DNA of 64,000 nt from the NCBI GenBank assembly GCA_965197745.1, contig CBDANS010000007.1, positions 1,856,001 to 1,920,000 of the forward strand. The letters run 5' to 3'. The notes under the pieces are model-generated. The model made no database searches and was not told the DNA's origin. It saw nothing but the letters and a program-made list of their open reading frames with translations. The position numbers and the translations under genes were made by a program. Below, piece by piece: positions 15,809 to 63,320 of this stretch. The number at the start of each line of letters is the position of its first letter. Within the stretch, counting starts at the first letter, position 1. The DNA comes from Opitutales bacterium (lineage in GTDB: Bacteria; Verrucomicrobiota; Verrucomicrobiia; Opitutales; PNEW01).

Positions 15809-17391
15809 TTAAATGATAGTATCAAGAAGGGCTTGAAGTTTTAAATCGGTCTCTTTTTTCTCCAAAGCGGGATCCGATCCCTCGACAATACCATTTCCTG
15901 CGTATAATCTGGCATGGGAACCATTAATAAGTGCGGAGCGTATTGCTACTACCATTTCGCCATCTCCCCTGGCATTAAACCAACCTACAACACCGGCATA
16001 GAGACCCCGTTCGAAGGCCTCGAGGCCTTTGATCTCCTCGATAACCTTGTCACGTGGTGTTCCCCCTACAGCTGGGGTAGGATGTAAAATGCCCAGAATA
16101 TCCATAAAATGGCGGTCCCCTGGAATTTCACTGTATATGGGCGAGCGACACCGGCATAGAGACCCCGTTCGAAGGCCTCGAGGCCTTTGATCTCCTCGAT
16201 AACCTTGTCACGTGGTGTTCCCCCTACAGCTGGGGTAGGATGTAAAATGCCCAGAATATCCATAAAATGGCGGTCCCCTGGAATTTCACTGTATATGGGC
16301 GAGCGAAGGTGCTGAACATTAGATAGTTGAAGAAGAACCGGTAATGCGGCTGCCTGGGCTTCGATCCCTATCTCCTGAAGGCGCCGGGTTATAGCGTCAA
16401 TGACCAGTCGATGTTCACGCAAGTCTTTGTCGCTGTTCAGCAGGGCTCGCGCGTAGACAGCATCATCACTGGCTGAACTACCTCGAGGGGCCGAACCGGC
16501 AATTGCTTCCATCTTTAACTCACGCCCCTCAATTTTTAAAAGCCGTTCTGGAGACGCTCCGATAAAACTCTGTCGTTTACCATTGGCTATTGAAAACGAG
16601 TAACATCCAGGATAGATACTGCGAAGCTTATTAAGCGAACCCAATGGATCGAAAGGGGTATTTTTATTTAAATCCAAAGCACGGGCTAAGACAATTTTTT
16701 CATATCGGCTTTCCGCTATTTTACCGAGTGCGGTGCGTACCGATTCTTCATAATAATTTACACCGCCCACTTCCCCGATTTCAGGCACGGCATCGGCTTC
16801 GGATTCTGGCTCAATTTTATCGCTGCCATAGCTGAATGAAGAGAATCTCTGATGTGCCTTCCAAACCTTGTTTGTCAATACCTCCAGATCTGTATCTTCA
16901 TTAACAAAAACATTGGCTACAGCCCCATAGGTTCCGCCACACCGTGAAACTTGCCAGCGAGGAACAAATACTGTGGCAGGTGGAAAATACTCCACTGATT
17001 CAGGTTCATTATAGAAAGTGAAGGCACAAAAAAAATGAAGCCCACTGAACGGGATATTGAGATCACCGGTTACGATAGCGTTATCAAGGATTGATTTACT
17101 AAACCTCTTTACTTCTTTGAATCTATCAGGACCCTCAAAACTGGCAGAGACAATAGCTTCCGCTCCCGCAACAGCCTCGTCCAAGGCCCGGTTCTCCATA
17201 TAAAAGTGGAGCTCATACTCTTCATAAATCGATTCTAAAACTGCCAGTGGATCGATATGCTTAACCTCGATTGAAATACTCGCTATTTTAAAATGATCGT
17301 CCTTCGCCGCTTCTTCTTTGCAGTTTTGAAGAAAAGAAAATAATGCCTCTCGATTGCGAGAGCTTACAGGTGGTGGAGCAACAACATTCAC
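15809..17391 (-). pseudogene. menF: Isochorismate synthase, frameshifted by a 158-bp tandem duplication
   Basis: KIVLAR, GASPERL, HPTPAVGG (twice), VAIRSA, YAGNGIV; split into ORFs 16066-17391 and 15809-16105. Confidence 0.85.
15991..16306. repeat. Exact 158-bp tandem duplication (15991-16148 / 16149-16306)
   Basis: Both copies run CACCGGCATAGAGACC...GGGCGAGCGA. Confidence 0.95.
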
Positions 17392-23948: not shown

Positions 23949-25562
23949 ACTTTAATTCAAAAGTATCGCCAGCTATAAGAGTGACAGGGGATCAAAACTT
24001 AAAAGGCGCTAATTCATCTACACGATTGACAGGAGGAATAAGTGAAAACGCCTGCCGCCTTTTCCTTGTGAGTCGGGAATGGTTACACCATCCAGCCGGT
24101 ACAGATTGAGTTTGTTGCGTAAGGTACGAACGTTCACCTTTAATAATTTCGCGGCATGGGTTCGGTTTCCTCGAGTTACTTTCAGCGCGCGCAATATTTG
24201 TGCCTTCTCAATTTCTACCAGGGAGACTACTTCGTCTGCTCTCGCTGTGGATCTCACCCTTTCCAACTCTTTAATACGGGCTGAGACAGAGTATAAATGA
24301 TCATTGTCTTCAAGGGCAACCTGATCACTATGTCGTGAAGAATTTAGACCAAATGATACTGCATCGAGGGTGCCACCATTTCCTGACATGATAACCGCTC
24401 GCTCAACAGCATTCTGCAATTCTCGCACATTGCCGAGCCAATCTTGTTCCTGTAAATAATCCATTGCTTCAGGCGATATCCCGCTGATTTTCACCCCATG
24501 CTTGGGAGCGGCCGCTTAGCAAAATACGTCGCTAATTGAATAATATCTGATCTACGCTCCCTGAGGGGAGGATTGTTAATAGGGAAAACATTTAACCGGT
24601 AAAATAGATCCTGGCGAAATTCTCCTTTTTCAACACATTGCACAAGATTGCGATTAGTCGTGGCTAGAACACGAACATCCACCTTGATCGTTTTATTGCC
24701 ACCAACACGTTCAAATTCGCGTTCTTGCAATACACGGAGAAGTTTAGCCTGCAGAACGGGTGATATCTCACTGACTTCATCGAGCAGAATGGATCCGCCA
24801 TTAGCCAGTTCAAATCGACCCTCCCGACGCGCCATAGCACCGGTGAAGGCTCCTTTCTCATGGCCAAAAAATTCACTCTCTATAAGGGAATCTGAAATAG
24901 ATGCACAATTCACCTTGGTAAATGCTTTCCCGTCGCGGGAGCTGCCCTTATGAATTTCATTTGCTACGAGTTCTTTACCGGTCCCACTTTCACCTTGAAT
25001 GAGTACCGTGGCTTCTGTGGGTGCTACTTTTTTGATGAGTCTCCGCAGATTTTTAATAGCCGGACTGCTCCCGAGAATCCCGGTATCGTGGTCAACACCC
25101 TGACTGTAAAAACGGTTCAAGCTGAGAATATGACTATAATCCTCCGCTTTATTAATGATAATATCAATCTGGCTGTGATTGGACCCCGTTTTTCGTACCA
25201 ATTATTAAGTGAGAGAGTTCCCGGGTATTAATGGTTTTAGGATTGATGTATATGAGAGATCTTGGCGAAGTGAGGGCGTAGCCCGAACGCGGCCAAGATC
25301 TGAAAGGAATGTGACAAACTCTTGTGGGCTTTTAAAGCCTAAACGACTGTGGGGATGATCATGGTTATAGGTCTGGCGCCATTGTTCGATTACAACTTGT
25401 GCTTCAGCCACGCTGAGCAACACTTCACGGTTCAAACACTCATCGCGTAAGCGGTTGTGAAACGACTCGATGAAACCGTTTTGCCAGGGACTGCCCGGAT
25501 CGATATATATCGCCTTGATCTTTTTGTCGGACAACGACTGCTGCACCTGATGAGCAATGAAT

Positions 25563-25594
25563 GGCTTCGCATGTCGTCGCTTCGCTCCTCGGAA
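25563..25594 (-). repeat. 32-nt hairpin micro-insert in the SDNGS-E-F codon of A1
   Basis: TTCCGAGGAGCGAAGCGACGACATGCGAAGCC on the coding strand. Confidence 0.9.
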
Positions 25595-25722
25595 CACTGC
25601 CGTTGTCACTACGGATATAGCTGGGAGCTCCCTCCTTTTCAATGGCCTCGCTAAGCACAGAGAGGACATCCGATGAGGGGAGTTCACGAGCGACCCGGAT
25701 ATCCAGACATTCACGCGTATAT

Positions 25723-25765
25723 GGCTTCGCTTCGCTTGAGTGTCGTCGCTTTCAGCTCCTCGGTA
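25723..25765 (-). repeat. 43-nt hairpin micro-insert in the D-E-YTR codon of A1
   Basis: TACCGAGGAGCTGAAAGCGACGACACTCAAGCGAAGCGAAGCC on the coding strand. Confidence 0.9.
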
Positions 25766-27177
25766 CATCGATCAGAGTCATCATCTTTAATGGACCGCCA
25801 TGGTCTGTGCGATCATGGACAAAGTCCCAGGACCAAAGGTGATTGCGACCGGTTGCTTTAGTAGGCGACCCCGTAGAGACCCCTTGACGGTGTCTACGCT
25901 TTTTAGGTGGCTTTACCTGCAACCCTTCTGAACGTCGTACCGCCTGAACAAACTTCCTGTTTGTTGTCCAGCCTTCCTTTACGAGCAAGGCACGGATGCG
26001 CCGGTAACCGTAGCAGGGATGTTCCCAGGACAGGGTTATAATCCGCTCGGCCAACCGCTGAGCTTTCTTACTGGCCTGCTTGGGCTGGTAGCTGAAAGTT
26101 GACCAACTGAGGCTGAGGTAGGAACAAGCCCTTCGCAACGAGCACAGCCCTCTCTCAGCCGCATCTTTTACTACTCGCTTCTTCTGCTTGGGGCTCACCA
26201 CTTTTTTGACAGCGTTTCCTCCATTACCTGATTCTTAAGCATTTGATCAGCGAGCATCTTCTTCAACTCGGTGTTTTCTTTTTCCAGCTCTTTAAATCGC
26301 TTCGCATCGGCTAGTTCCAAATTGCCATACTTTTTACCCCAGCGATAGAAGGTCTGTTCACTCACGTTGTTGCCTCGGCAGATTTCCTCTACCGTTTTTC
26401 CGGTATCGGCTTGCCGCAGTATTGCGATGATCTGTTCTGTTGTGTATCTTTTTCTTTTCATGAGGTTATCTGTTTATCCCGATAACCTCTCTCTGTTAAT
26501 GATACCATTTTTGGGGGTCACTCCAGCTGGTTGAAAATGGTTTGATAATATAATCAAAAGCACCTTCCCGCATACAATAGACAGCAGATTCAACCGAGGC
26601 GTAACCTGTCATCATGACTATCAATGGGGCATTCGGAGCTTTCGACAAGATGCGAAGCAAATCAGTACCGTCACCATCCGGTAATCTTACATCCATGAAG
26701 ACAAGGTCGAACAATTCATTTCTCAAAGTGCGTTCAGCGCTGGCAATAGTGTCCGCTGTTGCGATACTGCGTACTTTATTTGACAGTTGTTCTTCCATCG
26801 ACCTTCGAACCGCAAATTCGTCGTCGATCACTAATATTTTCTCTATGGCCATAAGCACGCCTTTTAGGGACAAAGGGTGTTTTACATTTTTTTTAACGTT
26901 AGGTCTATTGTTAGTTGATAAAAATTTTAAGGTTAATGGCGAGACGCGTATTGCCTTCAAATATCCCGGTTTAAAGCATTGGCATGATGCAATAAATAAC
27001 GTTGAAGTTCGTAAATTGTTGGTATTGTGGATAAAAAAACAAATTTTACATTTCCATAAACACTAATTTAGAAAATCAGTTATAAGGGTTGCATTACCAA
27101 AGTGAAATTTTAGATAATAAGAGACACTGCCATCGAACCGTAATTATTGAGATAACGCCCCAATAAAATACCGAGAA

Positions 27178-44333: not shown

Positions 44334-44418
44334 GCTCAGGTGGTGGAATTGGTAGACACGTACGCTTGAGGGGCGTATGCCGAAAGGTGTAGGGGTTCGA
44401 GTCCCCTCCTGAGCACCA
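44334..44418 (+). tRNA. tRNA-Leu(GAG)
   Basis: GCTCAGG acceptor stem, TACGC-TTGAGGG-GCGTA anticodon arm, long variable arm, GTTCGAG T-loop, CCA end. Confidence 0.96.
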
Positions 44419-45265: not shown

Positions 45266-46552
45266 TGGTCGTGACCACGAAAACTGGTCCACTTGAAAAG
45301 TTAGTCTGGTCCAACTAGAAAGGACACAGACAATGAAAGGCAAAAGATACACGACCGAAGAGAAAATACGGATGCTGCGCCAGGCGGACAAAGGGAAAAC
45401 GATCCTGGAAGCATGCCGCGAGAACAACATAAGCGAACAGACCTTCCACCGCTGGAAACGTGAGTTTGGGATGATTGATGTCAACCAGGCCAAGCGGATG
45501 AAGGAGCTCTTTGAAGGAGAACGCGCGGTTAAAACGGATGCTGGCGGACAAGATGCTGGGGATAGAGATCCTGCAGGAGACCCTCGAAAAAAAACTGTAA
45601 GCCCTGGGCACAAGCGGCAAGTGGCAGAGAGACTTGTGACTCGGGGCCAGTGTTCGATGCGAGCGGGGTGCCGGTACTTTCGGCTGCACCGTTCCACCTA
45701 TGCGTATAGGGCCAAGCATCCGGATGCCTGGCTAACGAAACTAAAAGCGGCAGTAAGGCGGTTATCACGGCAATACGCGAGGTGGGGCTATCCCAAGATC
45801 ACGAAGCTGTTGAAGGACGAAGGCTGGCAGGTGGGTAAACGTCTCGTGCAAGGTCTGCGACGTGAACTGGGTCTGGCGATCCCCCCACGCAAGCCAAGAC
45901 GCCGGCGCAGGGGTGTCTGCACCGGGCTACCGACAAAGGCCGAACATCCCGACCATGTTTGGACCTGGGATTTTATCCACGATAAGACGGTTCGCGGCGG
46001 CAGTCTAAAAATGCTGACCGTGCTCGATGAGTACACCCGCGAGTGCCGGGTGATCCATGTTGATCGCCATATCAATGCGGAAACGGTGCGCGGTATCATG
46101 CAAAAACTGCTCGACCGGCATGGGCCGCCAAAATATATTCGTAGCGACAACGGTTCCGAGTTTATTGAAAGCCAATTGAGAGCCTGGCTAACTGCGATGA
46201 AAATCAAAACCCTCTATATCGAACCAGCAAGCCCTTGGCAGAACGGATACATTGAATCGTTCCATGCCCGTTTTCGCGAGGAGTGTTTAAACCGTGAACA
46301 GTTATGGACTTTGACCGAAGCCCGCGTGGTCATCGAAGATTGGCGCTGGCTTTACAATCATGTCCGACCCCACCGCAGCCTCGGCAACATCACTCCACGG
46401 CACTTCACTGAAAACCTCAATACCGAAGGCTCGGGCTCCATTCGGGCTACGCCCTCATTGCGCCCAAGCCTTGACTTCCTCTACCAACTTAACTTCAACA
46501 TTAACCTCTCCAGACTAACTCTCCCGGTGGACCAGTTTGTGTAACCCGACCA
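45266..46552 (+). mobile_element. IS3-family (IS407-like) element type B, copy B1 (no micro-insert)
   Basis: IRs TGGTCGTGACCACGAAAACTGGTCCAC / GTGGACCAGTTTGTGTAACCCGACCA; intact WTWDF, DEYTRE, SDNGSEF, NGYIESF; a +1 change at 45510-45512 fuses orfA and orfB (45333-46544). Confidence 0.95.
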
Positions 46553-48202: not shown

Positions 48203-49519
48203 TGGTCGGGTTACACAAACTGGTCCACCGGGAGAGTTAGTCTGGAGAGGTTAATGTTGAAGTTAAGTTGGTAGAGGAAGTCAAGGCTTGGGCGCAATGA
48301 GGGCGTAGCCCGAATGGAGCCCGAGCCTTCGGTATTGAGGTTTTCAGTGAAGTGCCGTGGAGTGATGTTGCCGAGGCTGCGGTGGGGTCGGACATGATTG
48401 TAAAGCCAGCGCCAATCTTCGATGACCACGCGGGCTTCGGTCAAAGTCCATAACTGTTCACGGTTTAAACACTCCTCGCGAAAACGGGCATGGAACGATT
48501 CAATGTATCCGTTCTGCCAAGGGCTTGCTGGTTCGATATAGAGGGTTTTGATTTTCATCGCAGTTAGCCAGGCTCTCAATTGGCTTTCAATGAATGGCTT
48601 TGCATGTCGTCGCTTCGCTCCTCGGAACGGAACCGTTGTCGCTACGAATATATTTTGGCGGCCCATGCCGGTCGAGCAGTTTTTGCATGATACCGCGCAC
48701 CGTTTCCGCATTGATATGGCGATCAACATGGATCACCCGGCACTCGCGGGTGTACTCATCGAGCACGGTCAGCATTTTTAGACTGCCGCCGCGAACCGTC
48801 TTATCGTGGATAAAATCCCAGGTCCAAACATGGTCGGGATGTTCGGCCTTTGTCGGTAGCCCGGTGCAGACACCCCTGCGCCGGCGTCTTGGCTTGCGTG
48901 GGGGGATCGCCAGACCCAGTTCACGTCGCAGACCTTGCACGAGACGTTTACCCACCTGCCAGCCTTCGTCCTTCAACAGCTTCGTGATCTTGGGATAGCC
49001 CCACCTCGCGTATTGCCGTGATAACCGCCTTACTGCCGCTTTTAGTTTCGTTAGCCAGGCATCCGGATGCTTGGCCCTATACGCATAGGTGGAACGGTGC
49101 AGCCGAAAGTACCGGCACCCCGCTCGCATCGAACACTGGCCCCGAGTCACAAGTCTCTCTGCCACTTGCCGCTTGTGCCCAGGGCTTACAGTTTTTTTTC
49201 GAGGGTCTCCTGCAGGATCTCTATCCCCAGCATCTTGTCCGCCAGCATCCGTTTTAACCGCGCGTTCTCCTTCTCGAGCTCCTTCATCCGCTTGGCCTGG
49301 TTGACATCAATCATCCCAAACTCACGTTTCCAGCGGTGGAAGGTCTGTTCGCTTATGTTGTTCTCGCGGCATGCTTCCAGGATCGTTTTCCCTTTGTCCG
49401 CCTGGCGCAGCATCCGTATTTTCTCTTCGGTCGTGTATCTTTTGCCTTTCATTGTCTGTGTCCTTTCTAGTTGGACCAGACTAACTTTTCAAGTGGACCA
49501 GTTTTCGTGGTCACGACCA
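48203..49519 (-). mobile_element. IS3-family element type B, copy B2 (one micro-insert)
   Basis: Inverted near-identical copy of B1; orfA 49186-49452 intact; A-run slip site; 1317 bp vs 1287 bp for B1. Confidence 0.95.
48596..48627 (-). repeat. 32-nt hairpin micro-insert in the SDNGS-E-F codon of B2
   Basis: TTCCGAGGAGCGAAGCGACGACATGCAAAGCC; absent from B1 (46141-46170). Confidence 0.92.
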
Positions 49520-51407: not shown

Positions 51408-51437
51408 GTAGAGGTTCGAGTCCCCTCCTGAGCACCA
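51408..51437 (+). repeat. attR: duplicated tRNA-Leu 3' end
   Basis: GTAGAGGTTCGAGTCCCCTCCTGAGCACCA. Confidence 0.93.
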
Positions 51438-60769: not shown

Positions 60770-62264
60770 ACAAGTATATATAGCTAATGACTATTAACTT
60801 TTTGTCAATGAATGAAGACACTTCCTGACCTCTACCATTCGTGAAGTTAAATTCAAAGTCTAATGAATACAAATTTTCATACTATAAATAACATTAGCCT
60901 CTTGCAAATATAAATAAATAACCTTTCATAGTCTATATCGTGACACGCATAAAACACCTTCTCAATGAGATTAATTATGAACTGGTACGTCGTTTGGCTG
61001 AAGGGGGAATGGGTGAGGTTTACGAGGCACGTCAAAACGGGATTGACCATTTTTCTAAGACCGTAGCCATTAAGTTAATTCGCGAAGAGTATTCCGCGAT
61101 AAAAGAGTTTCGTAGAAATTTTGTGGGTGAGGGCAAAACTGGTAGCAGATTTAATCCATACCAGTATCGTGCAAACCTACCATCTTGGGGAAATAGAGGG
61201 GCAGTATTTTATCGTAATGGAATATGTAAACGGCATCAATCTTGAAGAATTTCATTTTAAACATATGTCACTTCGCATTCCCATCCCTATCGATATAACC
61301 GTTTTTATTGTATCACGAGTATGCCGTGGCCTCGCCTATGCGCATACTAAATGCGATAAAGAGGGAAGACTTCTCAATATTGTCCATCGCGATGTCAACC
61401 CCAAGAACATCATGCTCGCCCATGAGGGGGATGTTAAGCTCACTGACTTCGGTATCGCGAAAGCCCTCGATCTCATGTATAACGTAGAAGGTGAAGTTAT
61501 TGCTGGAGTGACCCCCAAAAATGGTATCATTAACAGAGAGAGGTTATCGGGATAAACAGATAACCTCAATGAAAAGAAAAAGATATACAACAGAACAGAT
61601 CATAGCAATACTGCGGCAGCCCGATACGGGCAAAACCGTGCAGGAAGTCTGCCACGGCAACAACCTAAGTGAACAGACCTTCTATCGCTGGGGCAAAAAG
61701 TATGGCAACTTGGAGCTGGCTGATGCGAAGCGATTTAAAGAGCTGGAAAAGGAGAATACGGAGCTGAAGAAGATGCTCGCTGATCAAATGCTCAAGCTTC
61801 GGGTGTTGGAGGAAACGCTCTCAAAAAAATGGTGAGCCCAAAGCAGAAGAAGCGAGCAGTAAAAGATGCGGCTGAGAAGGGGCTGTGCTCGTTTTAGAGG
61901 GCTTGTGCTTATCTCAGCCTCAGTTGGTCAACGTACAGCTACCGACCCAAGCAGGCCAGTAAGAAGGCTCAGCAATTGGCCGAGCGGATTTTGACCTTGT
62001 CCTGGGAACATCCCCGTTACGGTTACCGGCGCATTCGTGCCTTGCTGGTGAAAGAAGGTTGGGCGGCAAGCAGGAAATTTGTACAGGCAGTGCGACGTTC
62101 TTCGGGCTTACAGGTAAAGCCCCCGAAAAAGCGTAGACACCGTCAGGGGATCTCTACTGGGCTCCCTACTAAAGCAACCGGTCGCAATCACGTCTGGTCC
62201 TGGGACTTTGTCCATGATCGTACAGACAATGGCGGTATGCTAAAGATGATGACCTTGATCGATG

Positions 62265-62307
62265 TACCGAGGAGCTGAAAGCGACGACACTCAAGCGAAG
62301 CGAAGAC
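62265..62307 (+). repeat. 43-nt micro-insert in the D-E-YTR codon of A2
   Basis: TACCGAGGAGCTGAAAGCGACGACACTCAAGCGAAGCGAAGAC (1 difference from A1). Confidence 0.9.
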
Positions 62308-62435
62308 ATATACGCGTAAATGTTTACGCATCCGGGTAGCTCGACAGCTCACCTCAACCGATGTTCTCTCGGTACTCAGCGAAACCATCGATGAAGAGGG
62401 AGTTCCTAGCTATATCCGCAGTGACAACGGCAGTG

Positions 62436-62467
62436 TTCCGAGGAGCGAAGCGACGACATGCGAAGCC
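62436..62467 (+). repeat. 32-nt micro-insert in the SDNGS-E-F codon of A2
   Basis: Identical to the A1 insert. Confidence 0.9.
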
Positions 62468-63272
62468 ATTCATTGCTCATCAGGTGCAGCAGTGGTTGTC
62501 CGACAAAAAGATCAAGGCGATATATATCGATCCGGGCAGTCCCTGGCAAAACGGTTTCATCGAGTCGTTTCACAACCGCTTACGCGATGAGTGTTTGAAC
62601 CGTGAAGTGTTGCTCAGCGTGGCTGAAGCGCAAGTGCTAATAGAACAATGGCGTCAGACCTATAACAATGAACATCCCCACAGTCGATTAGGCTTTAAAA
62701 GCCCACAAGAGTTTGTCACATTCCTTTCCGCTCTTGGCCGCGTTCGGGCTACGCCCTCACTGCGCCAAGATCTCTCATATACATCAATCCTAAAACCATT
62801 AACACCCGGTAGTTCTCTCACTTAAAATTTGATACGAAATACGGGGTCCGATCATTGCTGGTAAAGATGAATACCTATCCCCGGAACAGGTTCGACGAGA
62901 TGTAACAGATGCCCGGGCTGATATTTTTTCATGTGGTATCGTATTAGCGGAATTGCTCCTCGATAATAATATTTTTGAAGAAGATCATCCCAAGTTGACC
63001 CGCAAGAATATCCTCAAAATGCCAATACCGGATTTTACAAAATTGCGCTCTGATATAGATCCTAAACTGAACGAAATCCTTCATAAAACTTTTCAGCGGG
63101 ACCGCAAGAAACGATACCAAAGTGCCGCTGAATTACTCACCGCCCTGGAAGTTTACCTCTATAGTGATGGTTATGGACCTACCATTGAAAAATTAGCGGA
63201 TTATTTGCGTAATTTATTTTCCGATAAAAAACCCGAGGCCTTAACCCATCAGTCGACGGGACCTTCTTCTTG

Positions 63273-63299
63273 ATATAATTTATATAATTTATATAATTT
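63273..63299 (+). repeat. (ATATAATTT)x3 upstream of rpoN
   Basis: Three exact 9-mers, each containing TATAAT. Confidence 0.85.
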
Positions 63300-63320
63300 A
63301 TATATTATATAAACCACCTG

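Follow-up and report, generated by a model that had tools for sequence, protein, structure and literature searches.

Four IS3-family elements in the window

The window, that is, the whole 64-kb stretch of DNA analysed here, contains four IS3-family elements, which we refer to as A1, A2, B1 and B2. A1 (1350 nt, positions 25176-26525, minus strand) comprises orfA (26195-26461, minus strand) and an orfB broken by two short inserts, I1 and I2. A2 (1351 nt, 61504-62854, plus strand) is 89% identical to A1, with differences in 141 of 1353 aligned columns and a whole-element divergence of 140/1276. B1 (45266-46552, plus strand) represents a second IS3-family type and is without inserts, the second insertion site being empty in this copy (GGTTCCG-AG-TTT). 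B2 (48203-49519, minus strand) is of the same B type, has a canonical orfA and differs from B1 in little beyond the presence of I2. The B type is about as distant from the A type as two IS3 relatives can be.

All four elements carry an orfA with a helix-turn-helix (HTH) domain and an orfB with a DDE (rve) integrase core. Pfam searches returned HTH_Tnp_1 in orfA (E 1e-21 and 4e-20), HTH_21, rve (3e-22) and rve_3 (6e-26) in B1, and HTH_21 and rve_3 on the separate pieces of A1. The orfB frame is open in the -1 frame behind a slippery A-run (A6G or A7, then TGGTGA), and a programmed frameshift is predicted from this arrangement. The elements end in TG...CA (TGGAGTG...GATCA) and are flanked by 4-bp target duplications. 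For A1 this duplication is CAGC on the element strand (25172-25175 and 26526-26529), and for A2 it is TTGC (61500-61503 and 62855-62858). Both are perfect, as proposed in the original prediction along with the intact ends. Removal of A2 and one repeat in silico gives an unbroken Ser/Thr kinase frame, and removal of A1 and one repeat gives an unbroken NtrC-like regulator frame, so we regard the clean transposition scars as real.

Several other features of the window were recorded. B1 and some near-identical copies have TTTG in place of the GAG of B2 in orfA, near position 45500; the extra base joins orfA and orfB into one 403-aa ORF that is missing the leucine-zipper part, and each of the two orfA forms was found both with and without I2. 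The last 30 nt of a tRNA-Leu(GAG) gene (44334-44418) are repeated at 97% identity 7 kb downstream (51408-51437), and the two repeats flank an island that contains B1 and B2 in inverted orientation. At 15990-16305 a 158-nt stretch is perfectly duplicated in tandem, and an AT-rich short tandem repeat of tatataattta units lies at 63270-63312, between the kinase gene and the start of rpoN.

Short inserts at fixed transposase codons

In A1, I1 is a 44-nt block (25722-25765, minus strand) located at the glutamate codon of LID|E|YTREC, and the I1 of A2 (44 nt, 62265-62308, plus strand) is at the same site. I2 is a 33-nt block at the glutamate codon of SDNGS|E|F, found in A1 at 25562-25594 (minus strand), at the same site of A2 at 62436-62468 (plus strand) and in B2 at 48595-48627 (minus strand). 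Comparison with the insert-free B1 shows that the insert block stands, at either site, in place of the AG of a GAG codon. The two I2 copies of A1 and A2 are identical (0 of 33 nt) and their I1 copies differ at 1 of 44 nt (GAAGACA versus GAAGCCA), exactly as had been counted by hand; the I2 of B2 has one of its 33 nt different from the A copies. No more than one difference in these 77 insert nucleotides would arise with a probability of 5e-7 if they diverged like the segment between the inserts, 1.4e-3 if like the element as a whole and 2e-10 if like the synonymous positions of orfB. On conceptual translation the inserts are shown to break the transposase reading frame: I1 is in frame and is read as VPRS followed by a TGA stop, and I2 causes a +1 frame shift.

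These inserts belong to a family of 25-44-nt sequences that start with T(A/T)CCGAG and end with CA. The core motif has 103 matches genome-wide, of which 100 are in IS3-type transposase genes (as judged by their flanks) at the same places. We defined the insert types from an alignment of 80 IS3-like copies of at least 1 kb in the source genome. I1 occurs in 32 of these copies and I2 in 72. I3 (37 nt, at LRD|E|CLN, -1 shift) is present in 9 copies, I4 (44 nt, at SPW|Q|NG, in frame and open) in 12, and I5 (25 nt, net +23, in opposite orientation at the slippery A-run) in 6. A sixth type, I6, is found in the orfA of copies in the sister-genus genomes G060 and G032, where it is in frame with a TGA. 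The net lengths added by I1 to I5 are +42, +31, +35, +42 and +23 nt. At least one insert is present in 76 of the 80 copies, and the four without any are all of the B type. Each insert type is restricted to its own site.

Empty alleles keep a proper GAG, GAA, CAG or CAA codon. At the five sites in the source genome, and at one site in a group II intron, the filled allele is without the AG or AA of the empty allele; the I6 junction of G060 and G032 gave no clean parse. One A2-type copy (G000:C7:836512-837859) has a 3-nt deletion exactly at the empty I4 target (CCCTGG-AACGG). The ends of the inserts are not inverted repeats, and two target bases are lost while none is duplicated; we therefore rejected the identification of the inserts as MITEs.

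The family motif contains a proposed GC/GC mini-stem with a variable loop of 3-6 nt. One motif pair, scored over 373 matches from 41 genomes, was G-C in 312, A-T in 55, G.T in 6 and A.C in none; these counts support a 2-bp stem closing the loop, putatively on the strand shown, which is the coding strand in five of the six IS insert types. A larger thermodynamic hairpin found no support, as nearest-neighbour DNA and RNA folding of I1 and I2 did no better than shuffled sequences (144-194 of 200 shuffles folded at least as well). No guide-like complementarity was seen by eye between the variable parts of the inserts and the flanks of their targets.

Divergence and selection in the segment between the inserts

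The transposase segment between I1 and I2 (25595-25721, minus strand, in A1; 62309-62435, plus strand, in A2) had been singled out because it looked selected. The reverse complement of 25595-25722 and the stretch 62308-62435, each 128 nt with the last A of I1 as the first base, differ at 26 positions without an indel. In the transposase frame, the 42 codons of the segment that we compared contain 11 synonymous differences, 9 residue changes and no stop. The estimate of about 26 differences and about 11 synonymous codon changes was thus accurate to the unit. By the Nei-Gojobori method these differences amount to 16.0 synonymous and 10.0 non-synonymous changes (dS 0.90, dN 0.11, omega 0.125). 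The segment does look selected, though the signature of purifying selection spans the whole element (omega 0.075 in orfA and 0.16 in orfB between A1 and A2). Along the two elements dS ranges from 0.12 after site 2 to as much as 0.90 between sites 1 and 2, from which we conclude that A1 and A2 are mosaics.

The dN/dS comparison was extended to 11 A-type copies taken from three genomes, which form 55 pairs that are not independent of each other. When dN was regressed on dS, the fit was dN = 0.032 + 0.082 x dS. This reads as old divergence at an omega of about 0.08 to which some 3% of recent neutral divergence would have been added, the latter being of similar order to the 1.3% divergence of the inserts. 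The test that had been proposed for the A-type copies points to recent relaxation of selection. Most likely, the selection signal in the segment is older than the inserts.

The insert family in other Opitutales genomes

The core motif was found in 41 of 301 sampled Opitutales genomes, in lineage-specific variants, while reversed-pattern controls gave 0-1 matches. In other genomes the inserts occur in IS3 transposase genes, at site 2 and at one further site, in variants different from those of the source genome (L121, L138, L123), and also beside partial copies of tRNAs, in repeats between genes, of which G038 has 64, and in domain I of a group II intron. A broader contig scan gave at least 117 stretches with the motif; as most of these were in unrelated high-GC genomes and were taken as chance matches, only Opitutales-type records were used.

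Three copies in the source genome lie directly 3' of tRNA genes, each within a 66-nt unit that has an outer stem and an inner hairpin with compensatory changes between two loci. These units (positions 2018-2200 of L001, G000:C6:353500-358500, and about 2530-2600 of L002, G000:C5) hold the element inside T-arm-like sequence, terminate in a copy of the tRNA's own 3' end and fold somewhat better than shuffles (z -1.5 to -2.3). With E values up to 1, an Rfam search of the tRNA-linked units and of 20 loci from other genomes returned no family that matches the elements; the hits there were tRNAs, a weak RtT that scored 23.7 bits where 45 is the cut-off, and domains D1-D4 of group II introns, which adjoin the motif without covering it.

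The intron hits come from group II introns with one or two elements (G270:C105:3860-4640 and G270:C82:3230-3700; L166, L151). One element lies in domain I, where it replaces AA; the second variant is in domain I in one case and downstream of D3 in the other. An intact sister intron (G270:C105) has AA and no element where the G270:C82 copy has one, so the element is a guest in the intron and not part of it, and a group II intron origin of the element was rejected. Group II intron searches gave no hits in the source genome or G060.

Probable recent acquisition of the inserts by diverged elements

A1 and A2 differ at no more than 1 of 77 insert bases, whereas dS in the flanks is 0.36-0.90. A separate comparison of flank and insert divergence was set aside, since choosing the inserts by a pattern made it circular and neighbouring inserts raised the divergence of the ungapped flanks. 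At every site the empty as well as the filled allele occurs, both among near-identical copies and in a sister genus. A-type copies show all four filled and empty combinations at sites 1 and 2, and a copy whose site 1 is empty is identical to A1 over the 30 nt on each side. In the sister-genus genome G060, 45 A-type matches have an empty site 2, and I1 and I6 were present in both of the two copies read out of about 45. In the public sequencing run X2, site 2 appears empty at a depth of 280, with the 33 nt skipped and AG in their place, and site 1 appears empty at a depth of 15.5. As this run possibly reflects a G060-like relative in the sample, we used it only to illustrate the appearance of an empty A-type site. 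No empty-site joint was found in runs X1 and X5, a result that does not show absence.

The proposed phylogeny with insert presence mapped was run as a local tree around site 1, with the insert columns excluded. On this tree I1 requires at least four gains or losses, which supports its separate acquisition. The deep A/B split measures about 0.8 changes per site to either side, yet I1, present on both sides of it, differs in only 2-5 of its 44 nt. Such differences appear in the inserts of old copies, and this decay roughly follows terminal branches. Together, these observations show the inserts to be of much more recent date than the surrounding sequence. The empty and filled alleles, the number of changes on the tree and the dN/dS intercept fit one of the two alternatives in the original prediction, namely a recent and separate entry of the inserts into the same codon positions of elements that had diverged before.

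We therefore favor, as the probable course of events, an old divergence of A1 and A2 under a functional transposase followed by late acquisition of I1 and I2 in each lineage. A1 and A2 would be two old sub-lineages of one IS3-family insertion sequence that split while the transposase was functional, and for this reason the segment between the inserts looks selected. Much later, each lineage would have acquired I1 and I2 from a family of tiny, gene-less Opitutales DNA elements, each of which overwrites AG or AA and each type of which sits at one fixed codon in the most conserved transposase motifs. New sites would be founded rarely, by a mechanism that is probably single-strand-specific. From there, an insert would reach the matching site in other IS copies; the main route would be recombination or gene conversion across the conserved codons that flank it, with transposition of the carrier IS as a further one. 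Insert-bearing A copies would be non-autonomous and multiplied by transposase supplied in trans.

Probable spread between copies and possible de novo insertion

The strict rule of one variant per site argues that the inserts pass from one IS copy to another when conserved flanks recombine or undergo gene conversion. The same route is indicated by the location of the sites in the most conserved motifs, by the mosaic dS, by the codon beside I2, which covaries with the insert state (TTT when empty, TTC when filled), and by a chimeric element. The latter, an IS copy at G000:C7:1673280-1674707, has an A-like left part and a B-like right part joined exactly at I2; judged from this junction, the shared I2 apparently served as the recombination point between diverged elements. 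Recombination was also detected among near-identical B copies, where the four-gamete test failed: 13 B copies differing at no more than four positions include all four combinations of I2 and the orfA variant. Recombination between copies therefore probably contributes to the separate entry of the inserts. Ordinary recombination with intact copies had been named, like a neutral substitution pattern joined with an intact trans-acting copy, as a finding that would refute an active mechanism; this is partly borne out, since recombination is evident and insert-free B-type copies exist, but no intact A-type copy able to act in trans was found. One point against the preferred reading is the length of the conversion tract, as a tract confined to I1 would have to be unusually short, the nearest differences being only 10-11 nt away on each side.

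Alternatively, a dedicated enzyme could write each insert de novo into every IS copy with no homologous donor, the uniformity of the inserts then reflecting saturation. The founding insertions themselves are separate events, at six IS sites and in intron and tRNA contexts. At least eight sequence contexts carry an insert, and the six with a cleanly readable empty allele share the AG/AA replacement; as separate sites share this two-base replacement, a specific insertion mechanism must exist. Writing of every copy would likewise account for the 76 of 80 filled copies and for the other variants that other genomes have at site 2 and the further site. Against this, site 1 is a perfect target in all 41 crown B copies but holds I1 in none, sites 3 and 4 are empty in all 25 A1/A2-type copies, and each site is strictly associated with one variant. 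Furthermore, no enzyme is linked to the elements. We consider de novo writing of every copy unlikely.

The candidate enzymes for the founding events were considered separately. The source genome has one Y1_Tnp (Y1 HUH) gene (C6:163380-163706), with no motif in the surrounding 3.3 kb. A link to RAYT transposases was rejected, as all 12 motif-rich genomes have Y1 genes but so do 9 of the 12 motif-free ones; these genomes were chosen by us, and the presence of Y1 does not tell the two groups apart. A reverse-transcription route was rejected because G000, G060 and G032 have no RVT_1 match. No link to an integrase was found either, with no split motif halves and no association in C7:1085000-1118000 or genome-wide. 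The two-nucleotide replacement matched no transposition chemistry that we could name, and this, together with the failure to link an enzyme to the elements, also weighs against the preferred reading. The HUH Y1 nuclease TnpA-REP works on one DNA strand, with CT or CA as the dinucleotide at which it cleaves single-stranded DNA (PMC8266576). By analogy, this cut specificity would match the replaced AG, which is CT on the other strand, and the CA ends of the inserts; the match is suggestive, but the loss of two bases does not follow from it. A bolder proposal is that an Opitutales enzyme system writes 25-44-nt cassettes at AG or AA by a new chemistry, in which two target bases are replaced on one strand, with a preference for the most conserved IS3 transposase codons. 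We offer it tentatively and hold it to be rather doubtful.

A possible ancient origin of the inserts

A second alternative is that the inserts are ancient, were present in the common ancestor of the A and B types and have been kept nearly invariant because they serve the IS, for instance as a regulatory RNA or DNA site, with the empty alleles being secondary losses. The same variant does occupy the same site in lineages that are about 50-60% identical. One base pair covaries, and loop variants are present in I1 and across genomes. However, loss of an insert could not recreate the proper codons of the empty alleles, save by conversion from another empty copy. In addition, the absence of I1 from all 41 crown B copies, the decay in dead copies that roughly tracks terminal branches, and the occurrence of the family inside an intron and next to tRNAs, places without any bearing on transposase function, all argue against this explanation, which we judge to be still less probable than the de novo writing of each copy.

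Effect of the inserts on the transposase

The remaining possibility raised in the original prediction was that the protein is still made despite the inserts. The inserts would then not be inactivating, but would be spliced from the RNA as a tiny intron, skipped or read through, giving low, self-limiting transposase levels with selection continuing. Several observations are in line with this. The insert-bearing lineages are those that multiplied, with 15 A2-type and 10 A1-type copies in the source genome and about 45 copies in G060, yet there is no intact A-type gene in the source genome. This also runs counter to the preferred late acquisition, since IS3 transposases have a reported preference for acting in cis, which is awkward for A copies driven in trans. 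Furthermore, I1, I4 and I6 are in frame, I4 being open and I1 and I6 having only a TGA of the leaky type, and IS3 elements already employ programmed frameshifting.

A second in-frame stop bears on the same question. The orfB of A2 has a TAG (61895-61897, plus strand) 21 codons after the slippery A-run, as part of a 4-nt block (TTAG versus GCGA, 61892-61897) in which A2 differs from A1. This TAG is common to A2-type copies; of 11 diverged A-type copies compared across three genomes 7 have it, and the haplotypes next to it differ. Among themselves, the TAG-bearing lineages have a dS of up to 0.43 and an omega of 0.11-0.31. If the TAG is old, such low omega values would mean function despite a stop, which again speaks for inserts that are not inactivating and counts against the late-acquisition reading.

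The sequences of the inserts point the other way. No single contiguous excision gives back the lost AG or AA, and a simple intron is thereby excluded; introns of the group I, group II and bulge-helix-bulge kinds were rejected because the AG/AA of the empty allele is missing at the junctions and the elements have no Rfam ribozyme or intron hits. The net lengths of I2, I3 and I5 would each demand a different frame shift. Programmed bypass was rejected because the take-off and landing codons are unmatched in most I1 copies and in I3: CCG and CCA could match in I2 and in 4 I1 copies, while 25 I1 copies have ACA (versus CCG) and I3 has TCA. Contigs from one RNA library retain I1, I2 and I3, which is weak evidence as DNA carry-over is possible. 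The recent relaxation indicated by the dN/dS regression and the decay of inserts in old copies also speak against continued function. We thus found no support for the claim that the protein is still made, given the TGA in I1, the +1 shift in I2, the lost AG/AA that cannot be regenerated and the TAG in A2, and we regard inserts that do not inactivate the gene as improbable, more so than ancient ones.

The suggested search for an insert-free copy that could act in trans was partly successful, in that insert-free B-type copies are present; for the A type there are only empty sites in relatives, and no intact copy. A stop-free A-type orfB was not found in the source genome, and the only intact relatives are the B-type copies, at 47% identity.

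Finally, although the inserts are short and near-identical, as an assembly or sequencing artefact such as a linker or adaptor would be, this explanation can be dismissed, since contigs of four separate public runs contain them, 41 of the 301 genomes sampled from the order have them in lineage-specific variants, and they stand at codon-exact positions and show decay in old copies.

Significance of the insert family

The element family itself is a more interesting result than the selected segment that led to it. REPs are among the least understood bacterial mobile DNAs, and the insert family offers empty and filled alleles at codon resolution, a reproducible two-base overwrite and a host range that comprises transposase genes, a self-splicing intron and tRNA-flanking sequence. 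The A elements are a natural example of a full-length IS that has lost its own transposase to a smaller parasite and yet exists in dozens of copies, which bears on how expansions of bacterial insertion sequences are driven and curbed. The inserts also explain why the IS3 transposase genes of these genomes are annotated nearly all as pseudogenes with the same lesions. If the proposal of enzyme-written cassettes were true, the family would in effect act as a hyperparasite that lives on transposons, or would serve the host in silencing jumping genes by means of a stop or frameshift cassette.

Comparison with known systems

A search of the literature with 20-nt insert strings and keywords did not find this insert family described. 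The inserts resemble R2 retroelements, which are site-specific in 28S rDNA and make a 2-bp target deletion, in that they occupy a fixed site in a conserved multi-copy gene and that two target bases are lost. Unlike R2, they are without poly-A or RT-related features, and no reverse transcriptase gene was found in the source genome or two close relatives. Translational bypass elements, such as that of T4 gene 60 and the 'byps' of Magnusiomyces mitochondria, are short (27-55 nt) repeated sequences that interrupt frames with stops or frameshifts, as the inserts do, and need matched take-off and landing codons. The inserts differ in that matched codons are missing in most I1 copies and in I3.

The Rickettsia palindromic elements (RPEs) are likewise selfish palindromic repeats inside open reading frames. 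RPEs are in frame and translated, whereas four of the six insert types stop or shift the frame. Di Nocera et al. 2013 (PMC3733652) equate RPE-4 and RPE-6 with REPs tagged by CGTC, which have no dedicated transposase, lie inside genes in some units and often have a CCA tail.

REPs and REPINs in general are gene-less repeats of 20-40 nt with a high copy number and an architecture of stem, variable loop and short unpaired tail; the inserts are similar in these respects, their stem being a proposed one. The inserts differ in having neither a GTAG tag nor an 8-9-bp stem, only a covarying stem of 2 bp being supported, and in their location, since 100 of 103 copies are inside transposase reading frames and not intergenic. 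The inserts start with T(A/T)CCGAG and have CGTC solely on the other strand, within the proposed stem. A two-nucleotide target replacement is not a described signature of REPs, and, in contrast to RAYT systems, no Y1 gene is flanked by the inserts.

The RUP element of Streptococcus pneumoniae (Oggioni and Claverys 1999) is reportedly a small non-autonomous repeat that prefers insertion sequences and was proposed to limit them. It is said to be about 107 nt long, to have inverted repeats at its ends, to duplicate a TA and probably to move by means of an IS630 transposase. The inserts described here have no inverted ends and no duplication, and sit at fixed codons. The family thus differs from both REP and RUP in its ends, in being free of inverted repeats and target duplication, in the replacement of two target bases and in its near-total residence in transposase frames.
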